The notes beneath the pieces were generated by a model. That model did no database searches. It saw only the letters and a program-made list of their open reading frames with translations, and was not told the origin of the DNA. Position numbers and translations under genes: made by a program. Source: Candidatus Lindowbacteria bacterium RIFCSPLOWO2_12_FULL_62_27 (lineage in GTDB: Bacteria; Lindowbacteria; 2-12-FULL-62-27). From it: DNA of 44,560 bases. The stretch spans positions 248,001 to 292,560 of the forward strand of contig MFPR01000001.1 of NCBI GenBank assembly GCA_001784175.1. Reading direction: 5' to 3'. Below, one piece after another: positions 7,863 to 34,001 of this stretch (the stretch's first letter is position 1; every line of letters begins with the position of its first letter).

Positions 7863-8377
7863 AAGTCCGACCCGCCTTCGGGTTCGCGCCGGTCTTCCTG
7901 CGCCATCCGCGCCGCCAGGCCGCTGCCGCGCGGGCGGCGATGGCCGTCGCCGTCGGCGAATTCGGAAGCGTCGTCGATCGGCGCCTGCGGGGACGGTTTT
8001 TTCGGATCCAGCACCGCCCGTATTTTTCTGACGAGGGTGTTCGAATTGAACGGCTTGGCCAGGTAATCCGCCGCGCCCGCCCGGACCGCGGCCATGACGG
8101 TGTCGCGGTCGGCGACGGCCGTCATCATCACGACGGGGATGTGGCGGGTGGTCGGATTGGCATGGAGGCGCCGGCAAACTTCCAACCCGTCCAGGCCGGG
8201 CATTTTGACGTCCATCAGCACCAGCGCCGGATTGAACTCGGCGACGTGTTCAAACGCCTGCTGCCCGTCATCGGCGGAGTCGGCCTCGAACCCGGCCTGG
8301 CTGAGCAACAGCACTGTCGTGATCCGCACCGACATCTCGTCGTCCACCACCAAAATCCGGCAGGGATCGGCCGTCAT
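7859..8377 (-). CDS. Response regulator receiver protein with charged C-terminal tail
   Basis: ILVVDDE, LMDVKMPGLDG, MMTA, YLAKPF; ATGA overlap with the upstream kinase. Confidence 0.9.
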   Translation of the reverse strand: MTADPCRILVVDDEMSVRITTVLLLSQAGFEADSADDGQQAFEHVAEFNPALVLMDVKMPGLDGLEVCRRLHANPTTRHIPVVMMTAVADRDTVMAAVRAGAADYLAKPFNSNTLVRKIRAVLDPKKPSPQAPIDDASEFADGDGHRRPRGSGLAARMAQEDRREPEGGSDL

Positions 8378-10953
8378 GCGCGCCTCACCATTACATCCCG
8401 AATCACTTGCGCCAGATGGCCCATGCTGTACGGCTTTTCCACGATCCGCACGCCCGTTTCCTCAACGAATTTCCGCGGCTCGTCACTCAGCACGTCCCCC
8501 GTGCTGAGAAGAAACGACTCCAGAAGTTCCGGATGATGCCGGGCGATGTGCCGGTAGAGAACCGTTCCGTCCTTGTCTGGCATTTTGAAATCCACGATGA
8601 GGGCGTCGAACACCTGCGTTTTCAGGGCGTCGATGGCCTCATCCACCGATCCGGCGGCGATGACACGGAAGTCGCGGCCGCCAAGGTACCTTGACACCGT
8701 CTTTCGAATCGACGCCTCGTCGTCCACCAGAAGAACCGACGCTTTGTTTTCCCCGTCCCGGACGCGACGTTCCGGACGATGTTCAACGTCAGATGGAGGA
8801 AGACCGTCGGGCAATTCGACCGTAATCGTGGCGCCACGCCCCTCCTCGCTCTCCGCCCGGATGGTTCCCCCATGCTCGGCGACGATGGCGTAACTGACGC
8901 TGAGCCCCAGGCCCGTGCCCTGCCCGACCTCCTTGGTCGTGAAAAACGGATCGAATATTTTCTTGAGGTTCTCCCTGGCGATTCCCGGCCCCGAGTCCTG
9001 AAAGACAATCCGGACGCGCCCGTCGGTTTTGCACGTCTGGACCCTCAGGCGCCGCGGGCCTTCCGTTTTCTTCAACGCGTGGTGTGCGTTTTGCGCCAGA
9101 TTCAGGAAAACCTGCTGGATCATGTCGCAGTCCACCCGGATCGGAGGCAAGTCGGAACACATCAGGGTTTGAACTTCGATGCTGTCCAACCGCATCTGGG
9201 CCGAACAGAGTTCCAGAACATTTTCGAGGTGATTGTGAATGTCACAGAGACTCCTCTGCGGGTCTCCTTTCCGGGCGAACGTCAGCAGGTTCTTCACGAT
9301 CCTGGCGCACCGCTCGGCCTCTTTGGCTATGGCCGCAACGTCGGCCTTGCACTCCCCCAGATTCTGGGAATTTTGGACGAGTTCCGCGTAGCCCAGGATG
9401 CCCGTCAGTGGATTGTTCAGCTCGTGGGCGATCCCGGCGATGGTCGTCCCGAGGGCCGACATTTTTTCGGCCTGGTGAAGATGTTGTTGAAGCGCCCGTT
9501 CCCTCGTTTCGGCGGCCCGGCGATCGGTCAGGTCTCTCGAGATGGTCGAGAAGTAATCAACGCCTCCACTCGGGTTGCGATGCGCGATCAGAATCATGGA
9601 GGTGGGAATGACCCGCCCGGCCCGGCTCTGAAACTCCATGTCCCCGGCCCATATCCCCTCCTGGAAAATCGCCGGGAGCGCCGTCCGCGTCAACTGCCGG
9701 TAGCCCTCGCGGCTGTGGAATTCTTTGATGCGCAGTTTGGAAACATCCTCATTCTCTCCGATTCCCAAGAGCACCCTCCCGGCCCGATTGACGTAAAGAA
9801 TGCGTTCTTCCGGAGTGGCAATAGCCACAATGTCCGGCGTCGCGTCGAGGATGGCGATCAGGCGCTCAAATCTCTCCGTCTGGCGGCCTTCATGGGCCAG
9901 ATGCGCGCCCAAGATCAGTGTAATGAGCAGTCCCACGGCCAGCACCATGATCGATTGCCGGCGGTCCAACGTCGCGTCGAACGCCGGAAGAGAGTAGTAA
10001 TGAAGCGTCCAATCGCGTCCATAGGCGTTGATATGGGACGTGGACCGAAACAGCGGCCGGGCGCCGGTGTCCGCCAGGCTGAGCGGTGGCGCGGCGTCGA
10101 AGAGAATCGCCTCCTCCTGAATCTCCCGGCCGGCGTCGGAGACGCCGGCACTTGGGGCGCCGGAGGCGCTGACCCGGCCGTCGTAGATTTCGAGACAAAT
10201 GTCCTTGATGCTGTCGCCGAGGATGCCGCGCATGAGGTCTTTCATCCGGTACGGGCTGTAGACAAACCCGACCAGCGCCGCCCGGCGATCCTCCACGGTT
10301 TCGGTGGGCGCGTCCTTTCGATAGAACGGCACATACATCAGGATGCCGTGCTGGATGTCCGTCTCGGTTTCCTGAACCAATTTGACCTTCCCGGAAATGG
10401 TCACCATGCCGGAGTCTCTTGACAGGGACATGGCCTGGTTCCGGACAGGTTCCGCCCACATGTCATACCCAAAGGCGCGAAGATTTCGTTTGACGAACGG
10501 CTCGAGATAAATAATGGAAGTGTAGGCGGGACGATCGCCCTCCGGCCAGATCCGGTACTTCGGAAACCCTTTGGCGCGGAAGCTCGCCTCATGGGCCGCC
10601 TTTTCCTCCGGGCGAACCCATTCGGCAAATCCAACGCCCTGAATCCCGGGAAAATTTTCCTCCAGCCTCATGTTGGCGATGAAGTCGCGCCATTCCGTCC
10701 TCTCCACCCGGGCGGAGCTTCTGAACAATCCAACCCCAGACCGGAGGACCAGTTCATGATCAAGAAGCCTTTTTCTGATCGCCAAGTTCGCGCGTTCCAC
10801 ATGGGCGTCAAATCTGTCCCGGGCGATTTCGAGTTCCTGCTCCTGTGTGAAATGCCAGGCCACGATGGTTCCGACGACGTCGAGAATCAAAATAGCGATG
10901 GCGATGAGCCGTCCGATCCGTATACGCGCTTGGCAGACTCTATTGATCTTCAT
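8374..10953 (-). CDS. CHASE-PAS hybrid histidine kinase (paralog 2)
   Basis: Same architecture as 3682..6246 with long identical peptide stretches ([21 protein letters not shown]); H-box IAHELNNPL; start ATG 10953 aligns with the N-terminus of paralog 1. Confidence 0.93.
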
Positions 10954-11068
10954 CACCGCCCCCCCCCACCCCTCAACTACTTGGAGATCAGAAGGTTGGG
11001 ATTTCATGATCATAAATCCAAAATGTGCCAGGGGCGACATATATATATGGAGAGGAGGCTTCCGATTT

Positions 11069-11758: not shown

Positions 11759-13306
11759 TCAGGGCGGCAGGGGCGGGCGGCGGGCGTTGACGAGGGCGTC
11801 GTTGATCGTGGAGGTGGCGGCCGAGGTTGACGATTGAAGCTGGTCCGATTGGAGCTGTTCCTGCGAAAGCCGGGCGGGGGGTGCGTCCAGAATGTCCGCG
11901 GACGTTTGCGCAGCCTCCCGCTCCGCCTCGGTCGCTCCGGCCGGCAGGAAATCTCCGAGCGCGGCGTCCCGGAGCAGGTCCAGCGGCCGCCGGACCGCCC
12001 CGAGTACCGACGGCTCAGACACAACCGCTGACATCCCCTCGCCCACCGGCATCGACCGGTCCGCACGGACCGTCTCCGGCCCGCCCGTGTTGAAGGCGGC
12101 TTCCAGGAACGCGCCCAAGTCGGAGGGCTGTTGCGGCGCGAGACCAAAAAAACCCCGCAACGCAGCCGGCAGTTGACCCGGATCCACCGGCGCGACGTAC
12201 CCCGCGCCTTCGTCCGTCCTCACCGCCGCGCCCGGGCCCTTCAGGTACGAAACCTCCTGGACCGTCCCCGTCACGCCGGCCACCGCGGTCGGCATGATCA
12301 CGCGCGCGCGGATTTCCCGGCCGGGCGACTTGGAGGAGACGGTGCGGACGCGGCCGAAGTCGAGGAGAACCTCGACCGAATGTTCGTAGCCCTCCTGAAC
12401 GCACAGGCCGACGGCGAGGTGGGTGAGGGGCGAGATTTCGAAATACACTTTTTCAAATTTCAATACGGCGCGCCCTTCGATCCCCGTGGCGATTTCGTCC
12501 CCGCGTTCGATCTCGATTCTGCCGGCGCCAGCCGCCGTCCAGCGGGTCTCGCCGCTTTTCCGGATCTCCACTTCTCCTGTCACTTCCGTGAGCTCCGCCG
12601 TCATTGGGAACCGCAACATCGACACGGGGCCGGAGCTTCCCGCCCGGAAGGCGCGCAGACGGCGCATGAGCGGCATCCGGGCCGGATGGCGGGATTCGGC
12701 TGCGCCGAATCGCTGTTCCATGCGGGTGAGGAACGCCAGAAGTTCCGGGCCGCTCATCCACTCGTCCGGATGGGTTTCGGGCGGAACGAGTCCGATATTC
12801 GCGGCGACCCGGAAGGCGTATCGCCGGCTGTTCGGAAACCAGCGCCGGAGCCAGCTTCCTTTGTATTCCAATCCCGACAGCATCACGGCCGCCGCCGCGC
12901 CATGCGTCACCGGCCGGCCGGCCTCACGCCAAAGATCCGGATCCAGCGGAACGCCCGCCTCCCTCAGATGCTCGATCTCGTGGTCCGTTCGGTCCGGACC
13001 CGCGTACCGGCGAAACCGGGCGGCGGCCCGAACCACATCGGCGACGGTGGCGGACGGCCTGACGGCCAGCGCCCGATAGAACTCCGTCGCGGCGCGGTCT
13101 TCGGCGTGGGACGCGAACGGCAGACAGAAAATCTGGACAACCCACAAAAACGCTCGGAGTAACCGGGCTGTCCCCCTCTCCCGCCATAGGCGGGAGAGGG
13201 TTGGGGTGAGGGTGGCAGGCTTCGCGCGGCGCCAATCCACCCCCCTCACCTCAATCCTCTCCCCCCTGCGGGGGGAGAGGAGGTGAATAACCACTGCGTG
13301 CTTCAC
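11759..13306 (-). CDS. Exported protein with FecR-like domain
   Basis: VTGEVEI...GDEIATG...AVLKF...PTAVAGVTGT FecR-like segment; signal peptide ending ASHA interrupted by a palindromic repeat; GTGA overlap with the upstream gene. Confidence 0.7.
   Translation of the reverse strand: MKHAVVIHLLSPRRGERIEVRGVDWRRAKPATLTPTLSRLWRERGTARLLRAFLWVVQIFCLPFASHAEDRAATEFYRALAVRPSATVADVVRAAARFRRYAGPDRTDHEIEHLREAGVPLDPDLWREAGRPVTHGAAAAVMLSGLEYKGSWLRRWFPNSRRYAFRVAANIGLVPPETHPDEWMSGPELLAFLTRMEQRFGAAESRHPARMPLMRRLRAFRAGSSGPVSMLRFPMTAELTEVTGEVEIRKSGETRWTAAGAGRIEIERGDEIATGIEGRAVLKFEKVYFEISPLTHLAVGLCVQEGYEHSVEVLLDFGRVRTVSSKSPGREIRARVIMPTAVAGVTGTVQEVSYLKGPGAAVRTDEGAGYVAPVDPGQLPAALRGFFGLAPQQPSDLGAFLEAAFNTGGPETVRADRSMPVGEGMSAVVSEPSVLGAVRRPLDLLRDAALGDFLPAGATEAEREAAQTSADILDAPPARLSQEQLQSDQLQSSTSAATSTINDALVNARRPPLPP
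13172..13289 (-). repeat. REP-like palindromic doublet, in frame in the FecR-gene 5' end
   Basis: Gene-strand sequence TATTCACCTCCTCTCCCCCC-GCA-GGGGGGAGAGG..GGTGAGGG-spacer-CCCTCACCCCAACCCTCTCCCGCC-TAT-GGCGGGAGAGGG. Confidence 0.95.
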
Positions 13307-14850
13307 AAATCCACCGACATTTTAAACCGCAGGAATTCCTCGTGGCTGCGGTTCAGGCCGTAGGCCGGGCCCGGGACGAACATGCCGAGCTGCAGGAGAT
13401 AGCGGAGGTCGGCGAGAGGTTTCCAGGAAAGTTGCGCATCGTATTCGTGGCCGATGTTGTCTCCGAGTCCGCCGGGCGACACGTTGTACACCGGGTCGGA
13501 CGTCGGGCCGGCTTCGTCTTCGGCGAGGAAATAATAGTAGGTCAATTGCAGGGTGCAGTCGTTGAGCGCCATGTGCGAGCTTCGGGCAAACGGCCGGACG
13601 CTGAATCCCGATTTGAAGGCGTGCAGGTTCGCCAGGGCCGGCGCCAGCGCCACGCCGAGATTGAGTCCGCCGAATCCCCGGAACACCGTGTCCCGCCCCG
13701 CCGTCGATCCGCCGCTCGAGGAGAACACGTTGCCGATCCGGTCCCGGTCACCCGACGCGCCGGCAACTTCGGCGAAAATCGAGGGCGCAAGATCCGTGCC
13801 GCCCACAAAAAACTGCATCCCGAGATCGTAGGCCGTCGCGTAGACGCCGATCCGCTGCGTCGTGCCGAGGTGCCCGTAGGTCAGGCCCCGCTCGAGGACA
13901 AACTCGCCCCAGATCGACAGGCGCGAAAGGGGGCTGGCCTCCATCGTGAAGCCGTAGTAGCGCGAGTCGAGCTGGTGGCGCTGGCCGTTCACGGCGAAAT
14001 CGAAGTTATGATCGAGGTTGAACAAGAGGTAGGCCCCGAAGGACTGGCCGCGGCGAATCTGATAGCGCGTTTCGAATCCGTAGAATTGCCGTTTCGTGCG
14101 GCCGGGGCCCGGCGCGAGGAAATCGAGGTTGTCATCGCCGGGATTCTGCCGGAGCGCCATCGCCCGGAGCGACCACCGGCCCCGGTCGGCCTGCCACGAC
14201 AGGCCGTCCGCCGTGAGGCCGAACGCGAGGCCGCGCCCGACCGACACAAAGTGCCGGCCGAGCCGCAGGCGGTGGCGGAAATGCGCGGAGAAGGCGCGTT
14301 CCCAGTAGAGCATTTCGATTTTGGGCTGGATAAAATCGCTGCCGCGGATCGCCGGAGAATTTTTTTTCGTCTCGGTGTATCGCGCGGCCGACCGGAAGTA
14401 GAATTTGCTGGTCCGCGGCGCGTTCTGGACCAATGCGTACACCCGGCCGTCATACACCCACGCGTGGTCTTCCGCGTCGGCCACGGTGTCCTGCCGGTCG
14501 TTGTCGTCCGAGGTCGTATAGGTCGTCGAAATCGTCGAGCCGATGTCGAGGAGCCATCCGCGCCGCCGGCTCGCCCCGAGCCCATCCTCGGTCCGCCGCA
14601 ACTCGTCCACGGATTCGACCCGCTCGCGCCGCCGGTCCTCGCCCGACATCTGGGCGGCCGCCGGGGCGGGCAATAGGCAGAAGACAAGAAGCAACAGGTA
14701 AGCGGGGAACGGTACCCCCCCTCTCCCGCCGTAGGCGGGAGAGGGTCGGGGTGAGGGTGGCAGTCTCCGGTCGTCGTCATCTGCCCCCCTCACCTCAATC
14801 CTCTCCCCCCTTCGGGGGGAGAGGAGGTGAATAGACAGATCAATTCTCAT
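13303..14850 (-). CDS. Outer-membrane beta-barrel, alginate-export-like
   Basis: Alternating beta-strand pattern, LRLGRHF..GRGL, ASGD, NL..FKSG, IGHEYD motifs; ATG 14850 overlaps the M6 stop. Confidence 0.65.
   Translation of the reverse strand: MRIDLSIHLLSPRRGERIEVRGADDDDRRLPPSPRPSPAYGGRGGVPFPAYLLLLVFCLLPAPAAAQMSGEDRRRERVESVDELRRTEDGLGASRRRGWLLDIGSTISTTYTTSDDNDRQDTVADAEDHAWVYDGRVYALVQNAPRTSKFYFRSAARYTETKKNSPAIRGSDFIQPKIEMLYWERAFSAHFRHRLRLGRHFVSVGRGLAFGLTADGLSWQADRGRWSLRAMALRQNPGDDNLDFLAPGPGRTKRQFYGFETRYQIRRGQSFGAYLLFNLDHNFDFAVNGQRHQLDSRYYGFTMEASPLSRLSIWGEFVLERGLTYGHLGTTQRIGVYATAYDLGMQFFVGGTDLAPSIFAEVAGASGDRDRIGNVFSSSGGSTAGRDTVFRGFGGLNLGVALAPALANLHAFKSGFSVRPFARSSHMALNDCTLQLTYYYFLAEDEAGPTSDPVYNVSPGGLGDNIGHEYDAQLSWKPLADLRYLLQLGMFVPGPAYGLNRSHEEFLRFKMSVDL
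14715..14833 (-). repeat. REP-like palindromic doublet, in frame in the barrel-gene 5' end
   Basis: Same two hairpin halves as 13172..13289 with a different spacer. Confidence 0.95.
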
Positions 14851-17359
14851 AATACGCGTAGACAACCTTTCGGCCTGATGAAGACGAGATCAGCCAGTCT
14901 CGCAGGTCTCGGAGGAAACCAAACGGCGGCCGATTCGCGCCGGGCCACCAGCGTCGTATCAAGCACGCCGCCGGATACGCCGCCAAGCCGCCGCTTCCGC
15001 CGCTCGCCGTGAAGAGAAACGCCCGGAACTCGCCCGGCGCCGGCGTGTACACGTACTCGGGCGACGCACGAAGATCCACGACCGCGCCCGAGACGAGATC
15101 CTGCAGCGTCAGCGGAATGTCCGGCGGGATGGATTCGATCCCCTGCGCGCGGATCGTGACCTCGCCCTCGGCGTCGGTGCCGACCTTCAGGCGCCACGAT
15201 CGCGCGTCTGTCGGCGCGCGGTACACGGCGCTGTAATGCTCGCCGGCCTCCTCCCATCCGACCCAGATGCCTGTGGGGGCTGAGGGCGCTTTGGGCGCGC
15301 GCGAGGACCGGCTCCGGACGCCGGCCTCCGTCTGCCGGTTGGCGTCGCCCCGTTGATTGACGACTTCGAACCGCACAGACCAGTCATACGCTCCGGTAGC
15401 CAAAGAGGGCGCGGAAAATCCGGCGCCCGGCGGCGCGAGCGACGCATACGGCGGGACCAGCATGGTGCAATTCTGCGCGGCGTACAGCCACAGGCCCTTG
15501 AACGGCTCCAGTGCGGGGTTCGTCACCGTGGCGCCGGCGAGGCTGGGGCCGTGGATATATCCGGTTTCGGGTTTGTAGTAGTAAACCTCGCCGTCCCGAA
15601 GCAGGCCGTTGGTGATCGCGGCCGAATAGGTGTAGGTCGATCCGGCGGTCGAGACGAATTTCAAATCTTTCACGAGAATTTTAAATTTAAACGGATTGCC
15701 GATCTGGTTCCATCCGGAAAACAGCGCGACCGGCACCGTGTCGTAGCGTGTCGTATCGCTGAGGGCCGAGGTCTGCGCGGTTTCCTGAATGTCCTTCGAC
15801 GTCGAATCGGTCAGTCTGGCCCAGTAGCCGTATCCGGCCGAGAAGGCGGAGGTCAGGGACAGCGCGGAATATTTTTGCAGGATCGGATCCTCCTCGCCCG
15901 AGGAAACCTCGGGGTTCCAGCGAAAGAGCTGGGAGGCGGAGAAGGTGACGCCGAATTCGTTCAAATCGCGGACAAGGCTGTCCGCCGTGTATGTGATTTT
16001 GTGCAGGGGAAACGGGAGAGAAAACAGGGCCCACTGATCGGGCGCCGTCAGAAAGGAGTCGACCGGCGCCTTCACATCCGCAAAATCGACCAGCAGCGTG
16101 AGTTTGCTGTTCTGCAGCGTGATGTACTTGATCGAAAATCTCGCCGCTGCGTCGCTGTTGGGCCGGGAATTCGGCGTCGTATTGTCGGCAAAGGCCGTCT
16201 TGCCTTTCGCGCCGGGCCACGGATGGGACGAGGTGGCGACATAGGACCCGCTGAGCTTGCCGATGTCGGTCCCGTCGGCCTCCTCAAGGTCGAGCCGCCG
16301 GAACTTGACGACCGTCGTGTTGTTGACGTCGTTGTTCGTGATCGTTCCCGTATCCTGGTCAATGTGCCAGATGAGCAGCCCCACGCCCGCGGCCGTGTCG
16401 GGATCGCCGGCGCCCGGGTAGCGGAACTCGAGCAGAAAATATTCGGACGTGTCGCCGGCCGCGGCGAGGATTTTATAGATGCGGGAGTCAGATTCGACCG
16501 GGTTCATCGTGACGTAGGTTGTCGTGTCGATCTGCACGGTATCGCCCCAGTTCAAGTACTCCCGGCTCCACGGGTCCATCCACGTCGGGCTGTCGCCGAG
16601 AATGGGCGCGGCGGCGCCCTGAAAATTTCCGTTGCCGAGGAGTGTCCAGTCGCCATTGCCGCCGTCGGCCGACGTCGTGTTGTAGAGGTCGGGCAGGCCC
16701 AGCTCGTGGCCGAATTCGTGGCAGAACGTGCCGAAAAAGCTGATCGAAAGCGACGAGGTGAGCTTGTAGGTTTCGAGCGGCGTGATGATCGCGTAGCCCA
16801 CGGTCTCGTTGGTCTGCGTGTCCGTGAACGGCATGGACGAAATGTTCTGCACCTTGGTCTGAAGGTCTCCGGTCTTGCTCGTAATGGATTTGCCGGGCCC
16901 AGCATGAAAGAGCGTCACGCTGTGGTACTGGGAAAAGTCGACGTAGGTGTCGACGCGCGCCAGGACTTCCCGCACAAGCAGGATCAGGCCGTTCGTATCG
17001 GTGCGCATCGTGTAACCGGCCTTCGTGTCCGACACGGTCACCATGAGCGTATCGAAGACGGTGTAGGCCAACTGCATTTTTCCGTACGAGATCCGCCGGT
17101 AAAACGTGTCGGCGCGGTCGAGCAGGACGCGCGCGTAGTTGCCGAGCGTGGTCGTATCGGCATGAAACACGCCGGTGTCGGCCGTCAGAGACGTCGACGC
17201 CTGCTGGAACTGCACGAGGAACGCGGCGATCCTGGCGGTCCCGGCGGGCGTGACATTGGCAAACCCGGGCGCGGCCTGAGCGGCGCAGACCGGCCACAGG
17301 CAACAGGCGATCGGCCAGAGCAAGATCGTGCGGAACCCCGTCCTGAAATGCTTCGACAT
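14840..17359 (-). CDS. M6-family (immune inhibitor A-like) secreted metalloprotease with CFI-box-CTERM-like tail
   Basis: Signal peptide; FHAGPG; zinc motif CHEFGHELGLPDLY; PWSREYLNW; EYFLLEFR; GLLIWHID; C-terminal ACLI...LRDLRDWL...GRKVVYAYY. Confidence 0.85.
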   Translation of the reverse strand: MSKHFRTGFRTILLWPIACCLWPVCAAQAAPGFANVTPAGTARIAAFLVQFQQASTSLTADTGVFHADTTTLGNYARVLLDRADTFYRRISYGKMQLAYTVFDTLMVTVSDTKAGYTMRTDTNGLILLVREVLARVDTYVDFSQYHSVTLFHAGPGKSITSKTGDLQTKVQNISSMPFTDTQTNETVGYAIITPLETYKLTSSLSISFFGTFCHEFGHELGLPDLYNTTSADGGNGDWTLLGNGNFQGAAAPILGDSPTWMDPWSREYLNWGDTVQIDTTTYVTMNPVESDSRIYKILAAAGDTSEYFLLEFRYPGAGDPDTAAGVGLLIWHIDQDTGTITNNDVNNTTVVKFRRLDLEEADGTDIGKLSGSYVATSSHPWPGAKGKTAFADNTTPNSRPNSDAAARFSIKYITLQNSKLTLLVDFADVKAPVDSFLTAPDQWALFSLPFPLHKITYTADSLVRDLNEFGVTFSASQLFRWNPEVSSGEEDPILQKYSALSLTSAFSAGYGYWARLTDSTSKDIQETAQTSALSDTTRYDTVPVALFSGWNQIGNPFKFKILVKDLKFVSTAGSTYTYSAAITNGLLRDGEVYYYKPETGYIHGPSLAGATVTNPALEPFKGLWLYAAQNCTMLVPPYASLAPPGAGFSAPSLATGAYDWSVRFEVVNQRGDANRQTEAGVRSRSSRAPKAPSAPTGIWVGWEEAGEHYSAVYRAPTDARSWRLKVGTDAEGEVTIRAQGIESIPPDIPLTLQDLVSGAVVDLRASPEYVYTPAPGEFRAFLFTASGGSGGLAAYPAACLIRRWWPGANRPPFGFLRDLRDWLISSSSGRKVVYAYYEN

Positions 17360-17390
17360 TTGCTTATTGTATATATCGGAAAAAAGCCTC

Positions 17391-17435
17391 AAAAAAACAA
17401 AAAAACCGGAGGCCCGCTTCTTCGCGGACCCCCGG
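17391..17435 (-). terminator. Intrinsic terminator downstream of the Pro-rich repeat gene
   Basis: Minus strand CCGGGGGTCCGC-GAAGAA-GCGGGCCTCCGG followed by TTTTTTTGTTTTTTT. Confidence 0.85.
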
Positions 17436-17467
17436 TCGATGTATCTTGAAGGTACCCTAGTTCAGCC

Positions 17468-20400
17468 TCAAACCGCTTCCATCGGAATCGGATACGGCGG
17501 CGGCGGCGCCAGCGGCGCCACGTAACCGCACCCGTCCGGCTCACAGCCGGCTACAAACGTGTTGGTGCCTTCCGGCGGAATCGTACACTGACTCGTCGCC
17601 GGATCGTAGGTCGTGCCCGGCGGGCAATCGATCATCACGCTGCCCGGAGGCGGCGGCTCGGGAGATCCCGGCGGAGGCGGCGGCGCGTCCGGTGGAGGTG
17701 GCGGCGCCACTTCCATGCCCGGCGGCATCACCGCGTACTGCGACTCGTTCGGAATCGTCACCGTTCCCGAGGTGGCATCGACTTCCGATCCCGGCGGGCA
17801 GGTCCATGCGACGGTTCCGTCCGGATTCGCCTGGACATCCGGCGGCAGGACCGCCGACTGGTACTCGTTCGGAACCGTCATCGAGCCCTCGCCAAACTCC
17901 GTGCCCGGCGGCGCCACAAACGTCACGGCGCCGTCCGGTCCCACCGCCACGTTCGGCGGCAGAACTTGGTACGTCTGGTCCGGCGGGATGACGCAGGTGC
18001 CTGTGGCCGGATCGTACGTCGCGCCCGGAGGGGGCGTAACGGTTACCGATCCGTCCGGATTGCATGAAGCTCCGTCCGGCATCACCATCGCCGAGTACTC
18101 CTGCGGGATCGTGAACGTGTTGGAATTGGCGTCAAACGTGGTGCCTTCCGGCATCGCGCACGTCACCGTGCCGTCCACGGGACTGACCGTGATGTTCGGC
18201 GGCAGTACCGCGCCGGCCTCGGCCGGCGGCAGAACGACCATGGGCGGCGGAGGCGGCGCCCCCGGCGGAACATCCGGCGGAGGCGGAAACTCCGTTCCCG
18301 GCGGCATCGTGCAGGTACACGTGCCGGCGTTCGGATCGAAAGACATCGGCACCGTCGCGTACGTCTCGCCGAAGGTTTCGGGCGGCATGACGCACATGGG
18401 CGGCGGCGGGGGAGGCGGCTCCGCGCCTGGCTCGAGCGGAGGCATGGGCGGCAGAGGCGCCATCTGGACGCCGTCGGCCGGTGTTCCCACATCCACCGCG
18501 ATCGCATACGCGGGCGGCGGCGGGGGCGCTTCTCCCGGAGGCATATCCAGGGGCGGCGGCGGCGGAGGCGGCGCGTAACCCTCGACGTCTCCGGCCGGCA
18601 CCAGTTCCCCGGTCCCGGTGTTCTCGCAAATCATCGCCGTGCCTTCCGGCGGCATCGTGAATTCGCCGGAATTGGCTTCATAGGTACAGCCCGGCGGAAC
18701 TTCGCAGGTGCAGGACCCGTCCGGATTCACCGTGACTTCCGGCGGCATCACCATCGGCGTGTACTCGTTGGGAATGGTGCAGGTCCCGGCGTTCGGATCC
18801 ACCGTCCATGCGGCGTCCCCGGCCGTCGGATAGGCCATCGTGCAGGTACCGGCGTTCGGGTCGAACTGCATGACCGGCGCGATATCGCCCGGCGGGGGCA
18901 ACGGAGCTCCCGGCGGAATCGTCTCGCATCCGGTGATGGCGGCCTGAACTTCCGATGTCGGCGGGATCGCAAACGTCCCGGCGTTCGGATCGATGTTCGT
19001 ACACTGGATCGTCAGCGCGCCGTCCGGCTGAACCGTACAGCCTTCCGGCATCACAGCGGGCGCGCCTTCGGGCGGAACCATGAACGTTCCCGCATTGGGA
19101 TCCATGGTGGTTCCCTCGGGACACGTCATGGTCATCGTCCCATCGGGATTGGCCACCACGCCCGGCGCGGGTTCGGCCATGTAGGGCGGGCAGTCCGGAG
19201 CGGGGCAGGTGATCGTTCCGTCCGGGGGATTCATCGTCGCTTCCGGGGGACACTCGCACGTGACGCTCCCGTTGGCGTTGATGTCCACGTAAGGCGGCAC
19301 ATAATCCGCAGTGGCATCGGGCGGAATCGTCACGGTGCCGGCGGCCGGATCATACTGGGTGCCCTCGGGGGCCACGCAGTTGATCGCGCCGTCCGGCGCA
19401 TAGGTCATATCCGGCGAGGGCAAGAACATCCCGCCGGCGCCGTCGGTCGGCATGGTCATCTGACCGGCGTCCGGATTGTACGTCGTCTCGGGCGGCATCT
19501 CGCAGGTGCAACTGCCGTCCGGATTGACGGTCGCATAATCCGGGCAGACCATCTCGGAGCCTTCCGGCGGCAGCGTGAACTCGCCGGAGTTGGCGTCGAA
19601 GGTGGTTCCTTCCGGACATGCAAGGGTACACGATCCGTCCGGCGCGATGTCGACGCCCGGCGGAACGGTGGGACAATCCTGAGGCGGATAGTTCAACGAT
19701 CCCGCGTTGGGATCATAGACGGTGCCCGGAGGACACTCCACACCGATGTTGCCGTCCGGCATGACGGTCGCGTCGACCGCGGGCGCGAACGTATCGATCG
19801 CGTCCTGCGGCGGCATCGTCACCGTGCCGGCTTCTGGATTGACTTCACACGTCGGCGGCAGCGCGCAGGTCACCGCTCCGTCCGGAGCGACCGCCACGTT
19901 GTCGGGACAAACCATGCTCGCCTCGGCGGGCGGCAGCGTGACGGTCCCGGCATCGGGATTCATCTCGCCGCCCGGAGGCAGGCTACACATGCAGTCGCCG
20001 GTCGGCATCACCTGAACGTCCGGCGGCGTCACTGCGTACGCGCCATCCGGCGGCAGCGTGAACTCGCCGGAGTTGGCCTCGAACGTCGTGCCTTCCGGCA
20101 TCGCAACCGCAACCGACCCGTCCGGCATCGGAGCGCATCCGTCCGGCATACAGGGTGGGGGCGGCGGGGGCGGAACGCCTGCGTCGGCCGGAGGCGGGGG
20201 CGGATATTCCACCGTGCCTCCGTACGGAGCGTCCGGCGGCGCGGGCGCGACTACCGCGTCCGGCGGCAGGGGCGCCACGACGTCACCTGTCGGCGTCACC
20301 GTCGTCTCAGGCGGCAACACCATCGCCGCTTCGCCGGCCGGGAACGTCACCACGGGCGGCGGGGGCGGAACATCGGGCGGCAGATACGGCGGCGGGGGCG

Positions 20401-20872
20401 GGGGTTCCTGGAAGGTACACCCGTCCGGGCAGCTCATGACCACCGAGCCGTCCGGCATCGGGGCGAGGCCTTCCGGCATCACCGCGTCCGCCGATTCGTA
20501 TGGAACCGCCAGCGCTCCCGCGTTGGGGTCATACGTGCAGTCCGGCGGGCATGTCATCACAGCCGCGCCGTCCGCGTTGTACATGCAGTCCATCGGGTAG
20601 GCATCCACCGGCGGCGGGGGCAGTGCGCCCTCCACCATGGTGGCGTCACCGGTCGCGGGAATAAACGTGTCCGCGCCGGCGGTCGCGCCGCTGTCGTACT
20701 GCGTCATGTCGTACGACGTCGACGTGTCGGCCGTCGATTCGGCATCGGCGGTCGTGTCGGTCGGCGCGTCCATCGGGATTGCCCCTCCGAGCGCACCGGG
20801 CGCTACAATCTCGTCCAGCTTCTCGACTCTGACTCCCTTCTTCTTACCTTTACCGGGATCCTTTGGAGCCAA
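17468..20872 (-). CDS. 1134-aa Pro/Cys/Met/acidic tandem-repeat protein with basic N-terminal leader, function unknown
   Basis: TTG start with GAGGAGGT RBS; about 40-aa repeats (CPxGTxYDPxxGxxTxPP...VxPDGxxT); own terminator. Confidence 0.85.
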   Translation of the reverse strand: MAPKDPGKGKKKGVRVEKLDEIVAPGALGGAIPMDAPTDTTADAESTADTSTSYDMTQYDSGATAGADTFIPATGDATMVEGALPPPPVDAYPMDCMYNADGAAVMTCPPDCTYDPNAGALAVPYESADAVMPEGLAPMPDGSVVMSCPDGCTFQEPPPPPPYLPPDVPPPPPVVTFPAGEAAMVLPPETTVTPTGDVVAPLPPDAVVAPAPPDAPYGGTVEYPPPPPADAGVPPPPPPPCMPDGCAPMPDGSVAVAMPEGTTFEANSGEFTLPPDGAYAVTPPDVQVMPTGDCMCSLPPGGEMNPDAGTVTLPPAEASMVCPDNVAVAPDGAVTCALPPTCEVNPEAGTVTMPPQDAIDTFAPAVDATVMPDGNIGVECPPGTVYDPNAGSLNYPPQDCPTVPPGVDIAPDGSCTLACPEGTTFDANSGEFTLPPEGSEMVCPDYATVNPDGSCTCEMPPETTYNPDAGQMTMPTDGAGGMFLPSPDMTYAPDGAINCVAPEGTQYDPAAGTVTIPPDATADYVPPYVDINANGSVTCECPPEATMNPPDGTITCPAPDCPPYMAEPAPGVVANPDGTMTMTCPEGTTMDPNAGTFMVPPEGAPAVMPEGCTVQPDGALTIQCTNIDPNAGTFAIPPTSEVQAAITGCETIPPGAPLPPPGDIAPVMQFDPNAGTCTMAYPTAGDAAWTVDPNAGTCTIPNEYTPMVMPPEVTVNPDGSCTCEVPPGCTYEANSGEFTMPPEGTAMICENTGTGELVPAGDVEGYAPPPPPPPLDMPPGEAPPPPPAYAIAVDVGTPADGVQMAPLPPMPPLEPGAEPPPPPPPMCVMPPETFGETYATVPMSFDPNAGTCTCTMPPGTEFPPPPDVPPGAPPPPPMVVLPPAEAGAVLPPNITVSPVDGTVTCAMPEGTTFDANSNTFTIPQEYSAMVMPDGASCNPDGSVTVTPPPGATYDPATGTCVIPPDQTYQVLPPNVAVGPDGAVTFVAPPGTEFGEGSMTVPNEYQSAVLPPDVQANPDGTVAWTCPPGSEVDATSGTVTIPNESQYAVMPPGMEVAPPPPPDAPPPPPGSPEPPPPGSVMIDCPPGTTYDPATSQCTIPPEGTNTFVAGCEPDGCGYVAPLAPPPPYPIPMEAV

Positions 20873-21058
20873 TCTTCCACCTCCTCAAATGTGATTGTTG
20901 AAGGACATCGAAACCTCGATCGTCCCCTCCCAATCCCCCTTGTTGCCACTCGTATTTTTATCCGCAGTCACGCGGAATATCAATGAATTCGTTGTCAATA
21001 TTGGCACTTCCGGAAAGTAGAGTCTGACACAGAATGCGTGTGTCCAAAGACACAGGCA

Positions 21059-21080
21059 AAATGTGAATAAATTCACTTTT
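21059..21080. promoter_or_regulatory. CRP/FNR-type operator
   Basis: AAATGTGA-ATAAAT-TCACTTTT versus the CRP consensus AAATGTGA-N6-TCACATTT; a Crp/Fnr gene lies in the adjacent operon. Confidence 0.65.
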
Positions 21081-21186
21081 GATTATCCACACATTGTGGA
21101 TTCTGTTGCAACACAAATGTTATCAATTGGTTACAAATCAAGCACGCGCGCCCCGCAACGCCGCCCAGGACACTTGTTGTTTTGTC

Positions 21187-21215
21187 TTGACACATCCCCT
21201 TTAAAATTGGATTAT
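21187..21215 (+). promoter_or_regulatory. Putative sigma70 promoter, possibly giving a leaderless mRNA
   Basis: TTGACA-17 nt-GATTAT ending 8 nt before ATG 21224; no clear Shine-Dalgarno. Confidence 0.45.
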
Positions 21216-21223
21216 ATAGGGTC

Positions 21224-23383
21224 ATGCCCGAAGCAGCCCAGAAACGGCTTGGACCCAAACTTCGAGACGACCTGATCCTGGTCGAGAAGATTCGCCAAGG
21301 CAAGCGGCTCCTTGTCATCAAGGACCCGCTGAAAGTTCAGTACTACCAGTTCGGCGAGCTGGAGATCACGCTCTTTCGCCTGCTGGACGGAAAGACGCCC
21401 CCGCCGAAGATCGTCGAGGAATTCAACAAGACGCACCCGGACGCCGAGATGGCGATGGACGAATTGAAGGAATTTCTCGGGGAGATCGAGAAGATGCACC
21501 TTCTGGAAAAATCGGCCGCCGAACGCAACGCCCTCCTGATTGAACGCCTCAAAGAAGAACGCAAGAACAAATTGATGAGCAAAAAGGGATCGATCCTCTT
21601 CAAGCGCTTCCCCCTGGTCGACCCGAACGACTTTTTCGACCGGATCCATCCGTACATCGCGTGGCTGTGGAGCGTGCCGAGCGTGATTTTCCAGTGTCTG
21701 GTGATTGTGGCGGCGGGGGTGGCCCTGGCGTACAACTGGGACCGGTTCATCGACGGCATCGAGGCGGTGTTTTCGTTCGGCGAGCAGACAGCGTCCAGCT
21801 TTCTGTGGCTGTGGCTGACGATCATCTGCATCATCATTTTTCACGAGCTGGGGCACGGCCTGACGTGCAAGCATTACGGGGGCGAGGTGCATGAGATGGG
21901 GTTTCTCCTGCTGTTTTTCCAGCCGTGTTTTTACGCGAACGTGACGGACGCCTACATGTTTTCGAACAAGAACCACAAGATGTACGTGACGTTCGCGGGC
22001 ATCATCGCGGAATTTTTCGCCGGCGCCATCTTCTGCTTCCTGTGGCTCCTGACCGATCCCTCGACGGGCTTCAACGCCATCTGCTACCAGGCGATGACGG
22101 TCTGCAGCGTCTCGTCGGTCGTGTTCAACCTCAATCCCCTTCTCAAGTACGACGGTTACTACGCCTTTTCCGAATGGGTGGACCTGCCGAACCTCAAGCA
22201 GAACTCGGGGGACGTGCTGGAGAAGTGGCTGCAGAGGATCTACAAGCGGAAGGAGGACATCGAAGAGGACGAATTGACGATGCGGGAGCGGCGGATTTAC
22301 ATCTGGTACGCGATCATCTCCAACCTTTTCATGATCTCGATGCTGACGGGGCTTTTTTTCATGATCAAGGACATCTTCTTCGAGGCGGCGCCGGAACTCG
22401 GGTGCCTCGCGTTTCTCTTTGTCGTCGGGAAACTCCTGAACAGCCAGATTTCCGCGACCGTGAAATTTGTCAAGGATTTCTACCAGTACGAAAGCGCGGC
22501 CTTCGGCGCGATCAAAACGCGGTTCGTGGCGCTGGCCCTCGTCGCGTTTCTGGTGGGGCTCTGTTTTACGGTGCCGTATCCGATCGTGGTGGAGAAACAG
22601 GTGACGATCGAGGCGAGGGACCGGTGGGTGGTGCGCGCGCCGGTGGAGGGATTTCTGGAGGAGATGTACGTGAAGAGCGGAGACGAGGTGAAAAGCGAGC
22701 AGCCCCTGTTTCTGATCGCGAATCCCGAAAAGAGCCGCAAACTGGCGGACCTCGCGGCCGAGGGGCCGAAATACCAGATGCAGCGCGACCAGGCGCTCGC
22801 CACGGACGAAGTCGGCAAGCTGGCCGACATTCAGCTTCGCGAATCCCAGACGGCGGCCGAGCGCAGGGCGATTTTGCGGGACCTTGAAAAAATGAAGACC
22901 TACGCGCCGGCCACCGGCCTCTTGCTGACGACCGGCGTGGAGGAGCTGAAAGGCAAGTACTACAAGGCCGGCGACAAGATTCTGGAAATCGTGTGTCTCC
23001 GCAATCTCTATTCGGTGGTGGAACTCGAAGAGCGCGAGGCGGGGGAGGTGCGGGACCAGAAATCGGCGGCGCGGATGGGCGGCGGGGTGGAGCCGACGAC
23101 GGCGCGAGTGAAAGTGAACGCGATGCCGGGCCGGCTGTTTGAGGCGCGGGTGGGCGAGGTCGATTCGTTTGCGGACACCGGCGGCGTCACGCGGAAGTTC
23201 CGCGCCAAGATCGTCATCCCCAACCCCGACTTCGACTACGGCGTCAACATCCTCGCCTCCGGCCAGATGCTGCGGCCCGGCATGACCGGCATGGCCAAGC
23301 TCGACATCGCGACCGCCACACCCGCCGGCGCCATCGGCCGGTGGCTTGCGGGATTTTTCAGAATGGATTTGTTCATGTACTGA
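21224..23383 (+). CDS. PqqD/RRE-like + site-2 protease (M50) + membrane-fusion-protein fusion
   Basis: N-terminal VIKDP..QYYQF...LLDG...L..F...LLE; FHELGHG (HExxH); NLNPLLKYDGY (NPxxxxDG); several TMs; VRAPVEG lipoyl-like segment and LRPGMTG. Confidence 0.9.
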   Translation: MPEAAQKRLGPKLRDDLILVEKIRQGKRLLVIKDPLKVQYYQFGELEITLFRLLDGKTPPPKIVEEFNKTHPDAEMAMDELKEFLGEIEKMHLLEKSAAERNALLIERLKEERKNKLMSKKGSILFKRFPLVDPNDFFDRIHPYIAWLWSVPSVIFQCLVIVAAGVALAYNWDRFIDGIEAVFSFGEQTASSFLWLWLTIICIIIFHELGHGLTCKHYGGEVHEMGFLLLFFQPCFYANVTDAYMFSNKNHKMYVTFAGIIAEFFAGAIFCFLWLLTDPSTGFNAICYQAMTVCSVSSVVFNLNPLLKYDGYYAFSEWVDLPNLKQNSGDVLEKWLQRIYKRKEDIEEDELTMRERRIYIWYAIISNLFMISMLTGLFFMIKDIFFEAAPELGCLAFLFVVGKLLNSQISATVKFVKDFYQYESAAFGAIKTRFVALALVAFLVGLCFTVPYPIVVEKQVTIEARDRWVVRAPVEGFLEEMYVKSGDEVKSEQPLFLIANPEKSRKLADLAAEGPKYQMQRDQALATDEVGKLADIQLRESQTAAERRAILRDLEKMKTYAPATGLLLTTGVEELKGKYYKAGDKILEIVCLRNLYSVVELEEREAGEVRDQKSAARMGGGVEPTTARVKVNAMPGRLFEARVGEVDSFADTGGVTRKFRAKIVIPNPDFDYGVNILASGQMLRPGMTGMAKLDIATATPAGAIGRWLAGFFRMDLFMY

Positions 23384-23384
23384 G

Positions 23385-24116
23385 ATGCCGCCCCAGAAAA
23401 TCGCGCACCGGTTCGGCCAGAGAAAAACGATGGCGGCCCCGGTTTCCTCCTTTGCGCTCCTCTCCCAGCACCCCATCTTCTCCAAGATCCCGGAAGGGGT
23501 CCGCCGGGAGCTGGTGGCCAGCGGGAGCCTCGTGCGTATACCGCAGTATTCGCTGCTGTTTCACCAGGGCGATGAGGTCACGGCCGCCTATCTCGTCATG
23601 GAGGGCCTCGTCAAAATTTACAGGAACATGGGCGAAGCCGACCGCACACTCGGATTTATCTACAAGTCGGGCATGGTCGGCTTGGACGCGCTCCACGCCA
23701 CGGACGGCCATCCCTACAGCGCCCAGGCGCTGGGCTCGGTCGTCGTCTGCGCCTTTCCCAAGGAGGCGATCCAGTCGATTCTGGCGCGCACGCCCGAGTT
23801 GGGGCCGCTGCTTCTGGCTGAAGTCACGCGCCAGTGGGAGGAGGCGCTGCACGAGCAGGACATCCTGACGCGCCGGAGCACGAACGGCCGGATCGCCGAC
23901 AAGATTTTGCGGCTGGCCGAAAAGTTCGGCCGGGTCGAGGCCGCGGGGACGGTGCTCCTGCTGAAGATCACCCAGCGCGAGCTGGCCTCCATGGCCGGCA
24001 CCAACCGCGAATCGGTCTGCAAGGCGCTCGTGACCTTCAAGCGGGAGGGCTCGATCGACATTCAGAACAAGCTGATCGTGGTCAAGAACAAAACCAAACT
24101 CGCCGCTTGGCCATAA
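23385..24116 (+). CDS. Crp/Fnr family transcriptional regulator
   Basis: LFHQGD, YLVMEGLVKI effector domain; HTH ITQRELASMAGTNRESVCKAL; alternative start ATG 23430. Confidence 0.92.
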   Translation: MPPQKIAHRFGQRKTMAAPVSSFALLSQHPIFSKIPEGVRRELVASGSLVRIPQYSLLFHQGDEVTAAYLVMEGLVKIYRNMGEADRTLGFIYKSGMVGLDALHATDGHPYSAQALGSVVVCAFPKEAIQSILARTPELGPLLLAEVTRQWEEALHEQDILTRRSTNGRIADKILRLAEKFGRVEAAGTVLLLKITQRELASMAGTNRESVCKALVTFKREGSIDIQNKLIVVKNKTKLAAWP

Positions 24117-24141
24117 GCCCGATTCTGCCGATATTATTCAT

Positions 24142-25782
24142 ATGCGGACTGCCTTTTTTCGGACAGCCTGTTTCCTGATCTGTCTGATAACTATTCACCT
24201 CCTCTCCCCCCGCAGGGGGGAGAGGACGAGCGAAGCTCGGGTGAGGGGGGTTGATTGGCGCCGAGCTAAACCGGCCACCCTCACCCCAACCCTCTCCCGC
24301 CTATGGCGGGAGAGGGGAGGGTTCCAAACGCCTCCCGCCCACGCCGAGGGGACGAGGAGACTCTCCATCACCGACGCGCTGAAGCTGGCGCAGGAGCGGA
24401 ACCCCACGTTTTCAAAGGCCAGCCTAACCTACGAATCGTCGCGGCTGACGTACCTCAAGACCCTCCACGGGCTGGGCTGGGTCGAGTCGTTCACGGCGTC
24501 CAGCGACTACAAGCGGGACGAGTCGTTCAGCTATTCGAAATATTTCAACACGACCGGCGAACGCGTCAGCGCGACCCGGAGCCGGACCCTGAGCAACACG
24601 ACGTCCTGGAACCTCAAACGCACGTTCGGGTCGGGCATGGCCACCGACTTTTATTCCAAGCTCACGACCAGCGACGGATCCAGCCGGTACAACGCGTTCA
24701 AGGGCGCGCTCGCGGACGACGCCAGCAGCAGATACAAATACATCACGCAGAAGTTCAATCCCGAAGTCGGCGTGAATCTCACGCTGCCGATCATCGGCAA
24801 GGACAAAAACAGCACCGACTACAGCCGGAAACAGGCGGACGCCTCGTGGGCGCAGGCCGAGATCGATTTTGAGGAGGCCAAAAAAAGCCTCGTGCTGTCC
24901 GTCCGGCAGGGATACTTTGATCTCCTCAAGTACCGGCGGATGGCCGCGCTTCGGAAAGAGGTGCTGGCCGAGGCCGAGGAACGGCTGGAGGTGACCAAGA
25001 AGCGGCTGAGTGTCGGGATGACGACCGAGATGGACGTGTCGCAGGCGGAGCTGACGGTTCTGAGAAACAGGGCGGACCTCGCCGACGCCGTTTTTTCGGA
25101 ACAGCAGGCCCAGAGCCGTTTCAACAGCCTGATCGGCCTGCCGCTGGACGACTACTACGACCTGACCGACGGATTTCCCCCGGAGCCGGTCCGCGAAGTG
25201 ACGATGAAGATGGTGCAAAGCCGTGTGATTTCCGCGAGCGGGGATTTGCGGCGGATGAACAAGGACATCGAAGTTTCGACGATCTCCGTCGAGCAGGCCA
25301 AGTCGAAGATGCGGCCGGCCTTCGCGTTCAAATCGAATCTTGCGCTCGAGGGCGAGCGGCGGGACCTGCCGAGGGTCCTGCGCAATCCCGAGGAGAAATA
25401 TTCCTTCACGCTGACCTACGATTTTCCGTTCGGCGAAAAGGTGACGCAGAAGGCGGACTTGGAGCTGGCTGAGGCGGGCCTGAGCACGAAGGTCCTGGAG
25501 CGGGACGAACTGAATCAGAGCCTGATCCTCGACGCGACCGAGACGTACCAGGAGCTGTTGAAGGTCCAGCGGCGCCTGGCGATCGCGCGGCAGTCGCGGG
25601 AGGTGTCGGAACGGAGTCTTCGGATCGCGCAGGCGAAGTTTGACGAGGGCCGGGGCGAGATCACCGACGTCATCTCCGCCAAAACGTCCCTCGTGAACGC
25701 GCAAGTCGAAGAGCTGAACAACCTCTACAGTCTGGCCGTGGCGACGGCCGAACTCGAGATGCTCACCGGAGAGTCGATCTAG
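24142..25782 (+). CDS. TolC-family outer membrane channel
   Basis: LSITDALKLAQERNP, VRQGYFDL, RLSVGM, KFDEGR OEP motifs; signal peptide split by a repeat. Confidence 0.88.
   Translation: MRTAFFRTACFLICLITIHLLSPRRGERTSEARVRGVDWRRAKPATLTPTLSRLWRERGGFQTPPAHAEGTRRLSITDALKLAQERNPTFSKASLTYESSRLTYLKTLHGLGWVESFTASSDYKRDESFSYSKYFNTTGERVSATRSRTLSNTTSWNLKRTFGSGMATDFYSKLTTSDGSSRYNAFKGALADDASSRYKYITQKFNPEVGVNLTLPIIGKDKNSTDYSRKQADASWAQAEIDFEEAKKSLVLSVRQGYFDLLKYRRMAALRKEVLAEAEERLEVTKKRLSVGMTTEMDVSQAELTVLRNRADLADAVFSEQQAQSRFNSLIGLPLDDYYDLTDGFPPEPVREVTMKMVQSRVISASGDLRRMNKDIEVSTISVEQAKSKMRPAFAFKSNLALEGERRDLPRVLRNPEEKYSFTLTYDFPFGEKVTQKADLELAEAGLSTKVLERDELNQSLILDATETYQELLKVQRRLAIARQSREVSERSLRIAQAKFDEGRGEITDVISAKTSLVNAQVEELNNLYSLAVATAELEMLTGESI
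24192..24317 (+). repeat. REP-like palindromic doublet, in frame inside the TolC signal peptide
   Basis: Near-identical to 13172..13289 but 9 nt longer, carrying a CGAGCGAAGCTCG mini-hairpin. Confidence 0.95.
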
Positions 25783-33998: not shown

Positions 33999-34001
33999 GC
34001 T

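Follow-up and report, generated by a model that had tools for sequence, protein, structure and literature searches.

How does a palindromic repeat come to lie within the signal peptides of three different exported proteins, and with what consequences for the genes? The question is raised by a stretch of 44,560 nt from an uncultured groundwater bacterium, here called the window (G000:C1:248001-292560), which belongs to a metagenome-assembled genome (G000) of 4.39 Mb in 44 contigs. In the window, three repeats of ~120-130 nt, each made of two inverted arms and referred to below as doublets, begin within codons 2-18 of a gene for an exported protein with no assigned family (gene A), of a gene for an AlgE-like barrel (gene B) and of tolC. 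Comparison with related genomes shows that the three doublets are insertions into ordinary signal peptides, and their structure assigns them to a BoxC/PIT/TMECO-type repeat that is not special to these genes. The explanation considered probable is that the doublets are non-autonomous copies, resembling MITEs (miniature inverted-repeat transposable elements), which reside at gene boundaries and have persisted by virtue of a stop-free frame and of their location in signal peptides. The genes and copies are the following.

11759-13306, minus strand: gene A, exported protein with no assigned family, 515 aa with the insert, GTG start; syntenic orthologue on G002:C68.
13303-14865, minus strand: gene B, Alginate_exp-type outer-membrane barrel (Pfam PF13372, E 1e-12), TTG start with an in-frame ATG at 14850.
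24142-25782, plus strand: tolC, outer-membrane efflux protein family (Pfam OEP, E 1.4e-38), ATG start.
13170-13292 (core), minus strand: doublet copy A, from the blastn census, the fold and the comparison with the G002 orthologue.
14714-14836, minus strand: doublet copy B, residues 12-50 of P0002, from the census and the fold.
24190-24320, plus strand: doublet copy C, insert at about 24193-24318 (tolC codons 18-59), from the census and the fold.

The gene families are outer-membrane or periplasmic. Neither Pfam nor NCBIfam assigns gene A to a family; the label "FecR-like" that it had received in a preliminary description of the window has behind it a Pfam match to FecR, the only one obtained, which is below threshold (E 0.035, 15 bits vs a cut-off of 24). 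For tolC, the TolC-type matches in NCBIfam are all under their curated cut-offs. Each of the three doublets folds as three hairpins, a central stem standing between two 12-bp GC-rich stems, and copy C represents a subfamily with one additional small hairpin. The significance of the folds was assessed by z-score and 200 shuffles per copy: the energies are -86.8 kcal/mol for copy A (z -6.2), -85.8 kcal/mol for copy B (z -6.9) and -91.4 kcal/mol for copy C (z -7.9), and 0 of the 200 shuffles was as stable in any of the three cases. Coordinates, folds and open frames thus confirm the observation from which the preliminary description set out, namely that doublets of ~120 nt start within the first 20 codons of three genes for exported proteins. 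The peptides encoded by the inserts comprise 39-44 residues, of which 8-11 are Arg/Lys and 4-6 Asp/Glu. A twin-arginine export motif, suggested by the stretch SPRRGER, was rejected on the established knowledge of that motif, given that no hydrophobic core follows directly and that in A and B the core lies ~30 residues off.

Two neighbouring genes enter into the comparison with related genomes.

14840-17392, minus strand: M6-peptidase-like gene upstream of gene B (Pfam), with its stop (14840-14842) overlapping the start region of gene B.
23346-24116, plus strand: Crp-like regulator gene directly upstream of tolC (Pfam), a synteny anchor common to G002 and G003.

Only three genomes (G001, G002, and G003) share a family with G000, and among them insert-free orthologues have been found for all three genes. 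In G002 (contig C68), the syntenic pair of barrel gene and gene A is free of inserts, and its stop and start signals overlap in the same way (ATGA and GTGA). From the GTGA overlap onward, gene A of G002 reads GTG-ACC-GCC-CGG, and 10 of the 12 following bases recur right after the element in G000; the inserted stretch is therefore placed at 13172-13303, a length of 132 nt (44 codons, residues 2-45 of P0001) directly behind the start codon. A sequence after copy A that resembles a 3' terminal repeat was rejected as such because of this match (10/12 bases) with codons 2-5 of the orthologue. The barrel orthologue of G002 has an ordinary signal peptide; in gene B of G000, copy B begins 3-6 nt past the stop of the M6-like gene, in codon 7 of the barrel gene, with both the hydrophobic core and the cleavage region behind the insert. 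The ancestral start of gene B is likely the ATG at 14850. As for tolC, the G002 orthologue follows the same Crp-like gene and has a signal peptide of 21 residues with no repeat, and the signal peptide of the G003 orthologue is also intact, with a related doublet in the leader right before the ATG. Among further TolC homologues, 10 of the 11 shown have a plain signal peptide running into the conserved mature N-terminus, and the remaining one (P0013) starts within that stretch. The TolC of G000 is laid out differently, with the hydrophobic core in residues 1-17, the insert in 18-59 and the cleavage region (AHA, then E) in 60-68; the residues after the insert match the cleavage region of the orthologues, and several distant homologues end in the same kind of region. 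A Sec signal peptide combines a charged n-region, a hydrophobic core and small residues at -1/-3, at the N-terminus of a protein that has exported homologues. When the inserts are removed, a crude rule-based signal test is positive for all three N-termini, and these align with the orthologue signal peptides. The earlier proposal that removal of the insert restores plausible signal peptides, for which an orthologue alignment had been suggested, is therefore upheld.

Public DNA data containing the window sequence come from groundwater and soil metagenomes, and in contigs assembled from DNA runs of several studies the junctions between flank and insert recur with no differences (six of six in X1, five in X3, three in X4, and one in X6); both tolC junctions are listed in X1 and X3, and one in X4. 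An insert-free joint was not seen in the contigs of four DNA runs, although contigs drop rare variants and none of those listed spans a whole copy. Regarding the start region of tolC, two side observations can be added. The leader doublet of G003 (contig C23; L002 1330-1445), in a related genus, is divergent in sequence and ends a few bases before the tolC ATG, and a unit-like peptide is present in the called N-terminus of the TolC homologue P0012. This region seems to have been struck repeatedly by the repeat.

The repeat family extends over the whole genome. A blastn census of G000 yielded 39 full-length doublets of 100-130 nt, and a profile of one arm found 129 units, which resolve into the 39 doublets and 54 single units. 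In the unit, a C-rich block is followed by a loop, then by a block of the GGGAGAGGG type, a spacer of 3-4 nt and a block of the GGGTGAGGG type; every one of the 39 doublets joins one arm of the CCTCTCCCCCC type to one of the CCCTCTCCCGCC type. BoxC/PIT/TMECO elements have been described as intrastrand-triplex repeats of E. coli and other bacteria, with the TMECO pattern CCCTCNCCC, 3-6 nt, GGGNGAGGG, 3 nt, GGGNGAGGG, and form inverted pairs of type A and type B in E. coli (Holder et al., 2015, PMC4666352). The doublets of G000 resemble them in the block order, in the inverted pairs of two arm types, in the many copies per genome and in the variable flanks. In fact, the right arm, read on the opposite strand, has the three blocks of the published pattern and the 3-nt spacer, but 9 nt instead of the published 3-6 form the "loop" between the first two blocks, because the stem, of 12 bp, is 3 bp longer. 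In the left arm, the spacer is 4 nt long and one block differs at its end; the agreement with the published pattern is close without being exact. Further differences are that copies in G000 have terminal repeats and target duplications, are found next to a DUF559 cassette, and reside in open frames of genes, whereas the relevant part of the E. coli account describes the K-12 copies as "always" intergenic, with no link to mobile elements and with their origin left open (PMC4666352).

Two of these additional features, terminal inverted repeats and target duplications, would make the family a mobile, MITE-like one. Many doublets end in GTAACTATTCACC on one side and in CCTGAACAGTTAC on the other, and a variant subfamily has ends of 16 nt. 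Flanking direct repeats of at least 8 nt are present in 8 of the 39 doublets, as compared with 0.79 expected from mismatched flank pairs (P 1e-6), and those of at least 7 nt in 12 of the 39 (2.6 expected). Three of the target duplications include a start codon (AAACATG, GCGTCTGATGG and, on the other strand, GTTTCATG); for AAACATG, the G001 orthologue confirms the downstream ATG as the start of the gene. The duplications of this kind, at C40:59384-59499, C41:40116-40236 and C20:80665-80780, each leave upstream a short pseudo-start, in or out of frame. A further doublet, at C4:28036-28144 (L026 502-700), lies in the n-region of a gene for a di-haem cytochrome c peroxidase (CCP_MauG) lipoprotein, with flanks that are a 17-21-nt duplication, with 2-3 mismatches, of the gene's own codons. 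The likeness of the 3' flank of the tolC copy to the flank of C26:61546 was judged too short to shift the element boundary.

A related form that bears a gene has also been found, together with single units, and two instances are in the window.

33613-34049, no strand assigned: DUF559 (Vsr-like) nuclease cassette (PF04480 match, 134 bits).
28196-28250, plus strand: single unit of the same repeat, filling the junction between a GAF-HlyD gene (stop at 28189) and the next HlyD-type gene.

In the cassette, the DUF559 gene (33666-33989, minus strand) lies exactly between inverted single units at 33613-33662 and 33999-34049, and a second DUF559 cassette with inverted arms of 46 nt is located on contig C6. 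The arm arrangement of the cassette matches that of the doublets, and for this reason the latter are probably gene-less derivatives of it: they share the BoxC-type ends in the same arrangement and differ in carrying no nuclease gene. MITEs are short and numerous, have no transposase of their own and are accompanied by a related autonomous element; the doublets are short and numerous as well, but the only related gene-bearing form found carries the DUF559 nuclease and not a known transposase. Several single units stand close to gene starts. The left unit of the cassette adjoins the ATG (33605-33607, minus strand) of a gene opening MKKFSILTATYNR; the HlyD-type gene after the unit at 28196-28250 has a membrane-anchor-like N-terminus that starts at or right after the unit; and the units C20:212237-212287, C31:32451-32503 and C28:215750-215797, in opposite orientation, end in ...RVGVRVA or ...GVRG right before a signal or lipoprotein core. 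With GGGAGAGGG in front of it, the GTG that these opposite-orientation units contain could supply the start and the n-region.

A shared reading frame has been advanced as a property of the three window copies. All three translations do enter the element as IHLLSPRRGER, with the element in sense orientation, although past the central spacer the frames diverge, A and C reading ...ATLTPTLSRLWRERG and B reading ...PPSPRPSPAYGGRGG. The agreement is weak evidence, for the shared sense frame is stop-free in 33 of the 39 doublets, while the two other sense frames, closed by the TGA in the TTGAGGTGAGG stretch, are open in only 5 each. With a single stop-free sense frame available, a shared frame is forced once the orientation is sense, and does not count as independent evidence. 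Antisense frames are open in 46 of 117 cases. Doublets inside genes occupy the one frame and orientation in 8 of 8 cases; outside genes, 11 are sense and 9 antisense to their neighbours, which gives 19 vs 9 overall (P 0.09).

The genome-wide placement of the family was assessed with crude gene calls from our own codon-usage model (2462 frames), with signal-type N-termini flagged by a crude rule of our own, and with N-terminal and in-gene sets of copies that were curated by hand and defined post hoc. Classified by their flanks, 13 doublets are codirectional-sense, 7 codirectional-antisense and 2 convergent; of the remainder, one flank is coding in 8 and neither in 9. The ends of the elements are usually 0-45 nt from a stop or start, and copies often fill an entire junction. 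Residence in a coding frame concerns 8 of the 39 doublets and about 14 of the 54 single units. Five doublets overlap the 5' end of a gene in frame, namely those of genes A and B, tolC, the CCP_MauG lipoprotein gene (C4:28036) and a gene of 891 aa (C38:30167); three are interior to genes (a family-9 glycosyltransferase, a PMT_2/TPR membrane protein, and a Pro-rich region). Another five overlap the 3' end of a gene, so that the upstream gene stops in or past the element. The copies C19:69081 and C40:59384 are open from a short upstream ATG. Behind each of them, however, stands an entire signal peptide that has an ATG of its own, and they are best read as leaders.

Within genes, this placement is not random. 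The first ~25 codons hold five of the eight in-gene doublets (an outcome with P 1.5e-5 if placement were uniform), and when single units are included 8 of 22 in-gene copies are N-terminal (P 7e-6). Nine N-terminal read-through copies were curated, consisting of the five 5'-end doublets and the single units C20:212237, C31:32451, C28:215750 and C4:255758, and eight of them precede a signal-type hydrophobic core. This has a P of 0.0024 against a background of 37.7%, obtained by allowing any early start; at the first start, 22.8% of 1936 genes are of signal type. The genome-wide check called for in the preliminary description thus favors a non-random distribution of the in-gene copies. Genes whose starts merely abut an element are of signal type in 21 of 42 cases by the automatic flag, or in 23 of 42 when two split signals are added by hand, vs the same 37.7% as an upper-bound background; an enrichment among all element-abutting starts is not relied on, the excess being weak. 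The enrichment at starts belongs to a wider placement at gene boundaries, which includes stops, starts, and untranslated leaders. The data fit two layers: placement or survival at boundaries, and then a filter that keeps in-frame 5' overlaps mainly in signal peptides.

A plausible course of events can be proposed from these findings. The doublets would settle, or survive, at gene boundaries, and the three copies of the window would have landed just within the 5' ends of genes for exported proteins. In two of the genes the start overlaps the preceding stop, so that any copy inserted immediately behind that stop lies within the following gene. The two overlaps, already noticed in the preliminary description, are real: the GTG of gene A overlaps the TGA of the barrel gene as GTGA, and the ATG of the barrel gene precedes the TGA of the M6-peptidase-like gene by 8 nt. 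The copies may then have persisted because the occupied sense frame has no stop and because the insert is located in a signal peptide, a disposable export tag. For A and B, the net-positive, Arg-rich 39-44 residues would merely lengthen the n-region before an intact core and cleavage site, and the mature protein would consequently be unchanged. A long positive n-region is compatible with Sec export. For TolC, an insert between core and cleavage site would be expected to hinder export or processing. The earlier suggestion that insertions survive where they are cleaved off with the signal agrees with the N-terminal and signal enrichment, but not with TolC, where the insert splits the core from the cleavage region and is not simply removed with the signal. 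The analysis establishes the insertion events, the element family with its marks of mobility, the constraint on the frame and the enrichment at boundaries and N-termini, whereas translation through the inserts, continued export of the products and selection as the cause of the enrichment are what we infer from the sequences. For the three genes, the inserts are probably neutral to harmful passenger DNA.

Several points weigh against this explanation. Gene and signal-peptide calls rest on crude home-made models, and the curated sets are post hoc. The 8 of 8 agreement of in-gene doublets in frame and orientation exceeds what the stop-codon filter gives with unbiased orientation (P ~5e-4), in a sample that is small and a set that is post hoc; the residual bias is unexplained, peptide tolerance or an orientation effect being possible causes. 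The N-terminal case of C38:30167 is without orthologue support (orthologues of this gene and of that of C4:28036 were not found in G001-G003). A target-site duplication was sought at the three window copies and none was found, nor is a 3' terminal repeat recognisable there, and for that reason the mode of insertion is less clear than for the intergenic copies. Finally, the position of the insert in TolC is hard to square with normal cleavage by signal peptidase.

The last point leads to a first alternative, according to which tolC has been inactivated or crippled, its product remaining anchored through an uncleaved signal or not being exported at all. The insertion would then be a recent, slightly harmful one, buffered by other channel genes. 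Positive charges right after a Sec core inhibit translocation, and signal peptidase I cuts near the membrane; in TolC, the insert (11 Arg/Lys, 4 Asp/Glu) is directly behind the core and shifts the cleavage region by 42 residues. Two weaker matches of the TolC query in the genome (E 9e-8 and 1.6e-5) may be such channel genes. On the other hand, the 1.6-kb frame of tolC is intact, the ATG of the next gene of the efflux-type cluster starts 2 nt past its stop, and the same allele recurs without differences in contigs from several studies. Damage to tolC is thus a real possibility, although a gene that still functions seems the better bet.

A second alternative concerns the start codons of A and B. 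Their translation might begin at a GTG within the element, preceded by a purine-rich arm, or at a TTG just after it, in which case the element would be a leader and not coding. In-frame GTGs are present in the left arm of every copy, TTG candidates 19-22 nt past the element leave short signal-like N-termini, and for many other copies the element lies just ahead of the true start. For A and B, the core is kept from any of the starts (the old one, the in-frame GTG of the left arm, or the TTG after the element), but the TTG leaves signal peptides with no charged n-region, and the ancestral starts occupy conserved positions, where G002 shows the same overlaps of stop and start. The public call for tolC (P0005, 513 aa) begins at an in-element GTG, and the signal peptide is consequently lost from that call; the tolC core is kept only from the old ATG, and any start at or past the element loses it. 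Element arms as donors of Shine-Dalgarno sequences were set aside, as the use of such sequences in G000 is weak: a Shine-Dalgarno core within 20 nt is found in 27.5% of 280 unambiguous starts vs 16.4% of internal controls, and the lineage accordingly depends little on this pairing. Initiation within or after the element in A and B is, taken together, rather doubtful.

More ambitious proposals give the elements a function. One is that BoxC-type doublets are directed to start/stop junctions as portable leader modules, with purine-rich arms, in-frame GTGs and a stop-free Arg-rich frame, and that the association with the tolC start has been retained on this account. If so, landing on the 5' end of an envelope gene would provide in one step a longer positive n-region and a strong RNA structure, and would reset translational coupling or the rate of export. 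This proposal is regarded as unlikely. The other, put forward in the preliminary description with regard to export and translation, is a co-option of the elements, in which the structured RNA or the Arg-rich extension would tune translation, translational coupling, or export of these envelope proteins. Very stable structures begin ~20-55 nt after the starts, the bias in frame and orientation goes beyond the stop filter, element arms often adjoin start codons, and relatives of tolC have related units at or before their starts (the leader of G003 and the N-terminus of P0012). However, the same element is also present in leaders, behind stops, in the space separating convergent genes, and within enzymes and membrane proteins, and its position in the signal peptide varies between the n-region and the junction of core and cleavage site. 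Moreover, a scan for promoters and terminators detected no promoter-like or terminator-like site within the copies, and an Rfam search returned only sub-threshold chance matches to hairpin families. Likewise, published work on BoxC, in the part drawn upon here, found no promoter or terminator activity (PMC4666352). Co-option hence finds no support in these data and is considered very unlikely. An artefact of the metagenome assembly, with false joins caused by the repeat and an accidental in-frame reading, is hardly credible even though the short-read contigs of four runs all break within the hairpins and none of those listed spans a whole copy, as both halves of each signal peptide flank the copy and align with orthologues in a conserved gene order, and the flank-to-element junctions recur across studies.

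The probable explanation, that of MITE-like copies tolerated in signal peptides, thus amounts to a selfish repeat of a known kind in an unusual place, and not to a new system. In-frame palindromic mobile repeats within genes are known from Rickettsia elements and from several enterobacterial and Neisseria MITEs. The Rickettsia palindromic elements, as far as they are described in the parts of the papers drawn on, are palindromes of ~100-150 nt with an open frame that reside in frame within conserved protein genes and are apparently tolerated (Ogata et al., 2000, via PMC2229807 and PMC2759123). The likeness is limited to the in-frame residence, a matter of behavior, and a relation in sequence is not expected; the host lineage differs, and the inserts of Rickettsia have been described in mature proteins, whereas those reported here are in signal peptides and at operon junctions. 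Another example is the RU-2/YPAL element of Yersinia, which contributes a part of the signal peptide predicted for YPO1552 (Delihas, 2007, PMC2759123). In that case, a hydrophobic peptide from a MITE helps to build up the signal of a protein that is small and possibly new, whereas the single genome G000 has several genes in which a charged, non-hydrophobic peptide interrupts or extends the signal that a conserved protein already had. A literature search found no account of BoxC-type repeats translated in signal peptides or with target duplications, supplementary tables being outside that search.

The significance of the three inserts is threefold. They are natural insertions of 39-44 residues into signal peptides, verified by orthologues, two of which extend the n-region and one of which splits the core from the cleavage site, and as such are ready for use in testing how large an addition a Sec signal tolerates. 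In addition, BoxC/TMECO, described as purely intergenic and of unexplained origin, here acts like a mobile element that enters genes in one open frame and concentrates at operon junctions. Lastly, they are a warning for annotation, since gene callers choose starts within the elements, as in the public tolC call.

Some observations on the surroundings of the three genes complete the description of the window. The efflux-type cluster has the order M50-HlyD, Crp-like, TolC, GAF-HlyD, and HlyD. Two stretches of ~2 kb (3756-5764 and 8427-10474) are 71-78% identical; the second is within a CHASE/PAS histidine-kinase gene (8374-11040, minus strand), and they are probably paralogous sensor kinases. 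An open frame of 1134 aa at 17468-20872 has no Pfam match and contains many degenerate internal repeats of ~40 codons; between this frame and the M6-like gene there is a strong terminator-like hairpin followed by a T run (17437-17404, minus strand). Finally, in G001-G003 the barrel gene and the gene-A type are paired as neighbours in many paralogous copies, with 5-12 barrel matches in each genome and with gene A sometimes split in two; the pair is an expanded envelope gene cassette in the related genomes.

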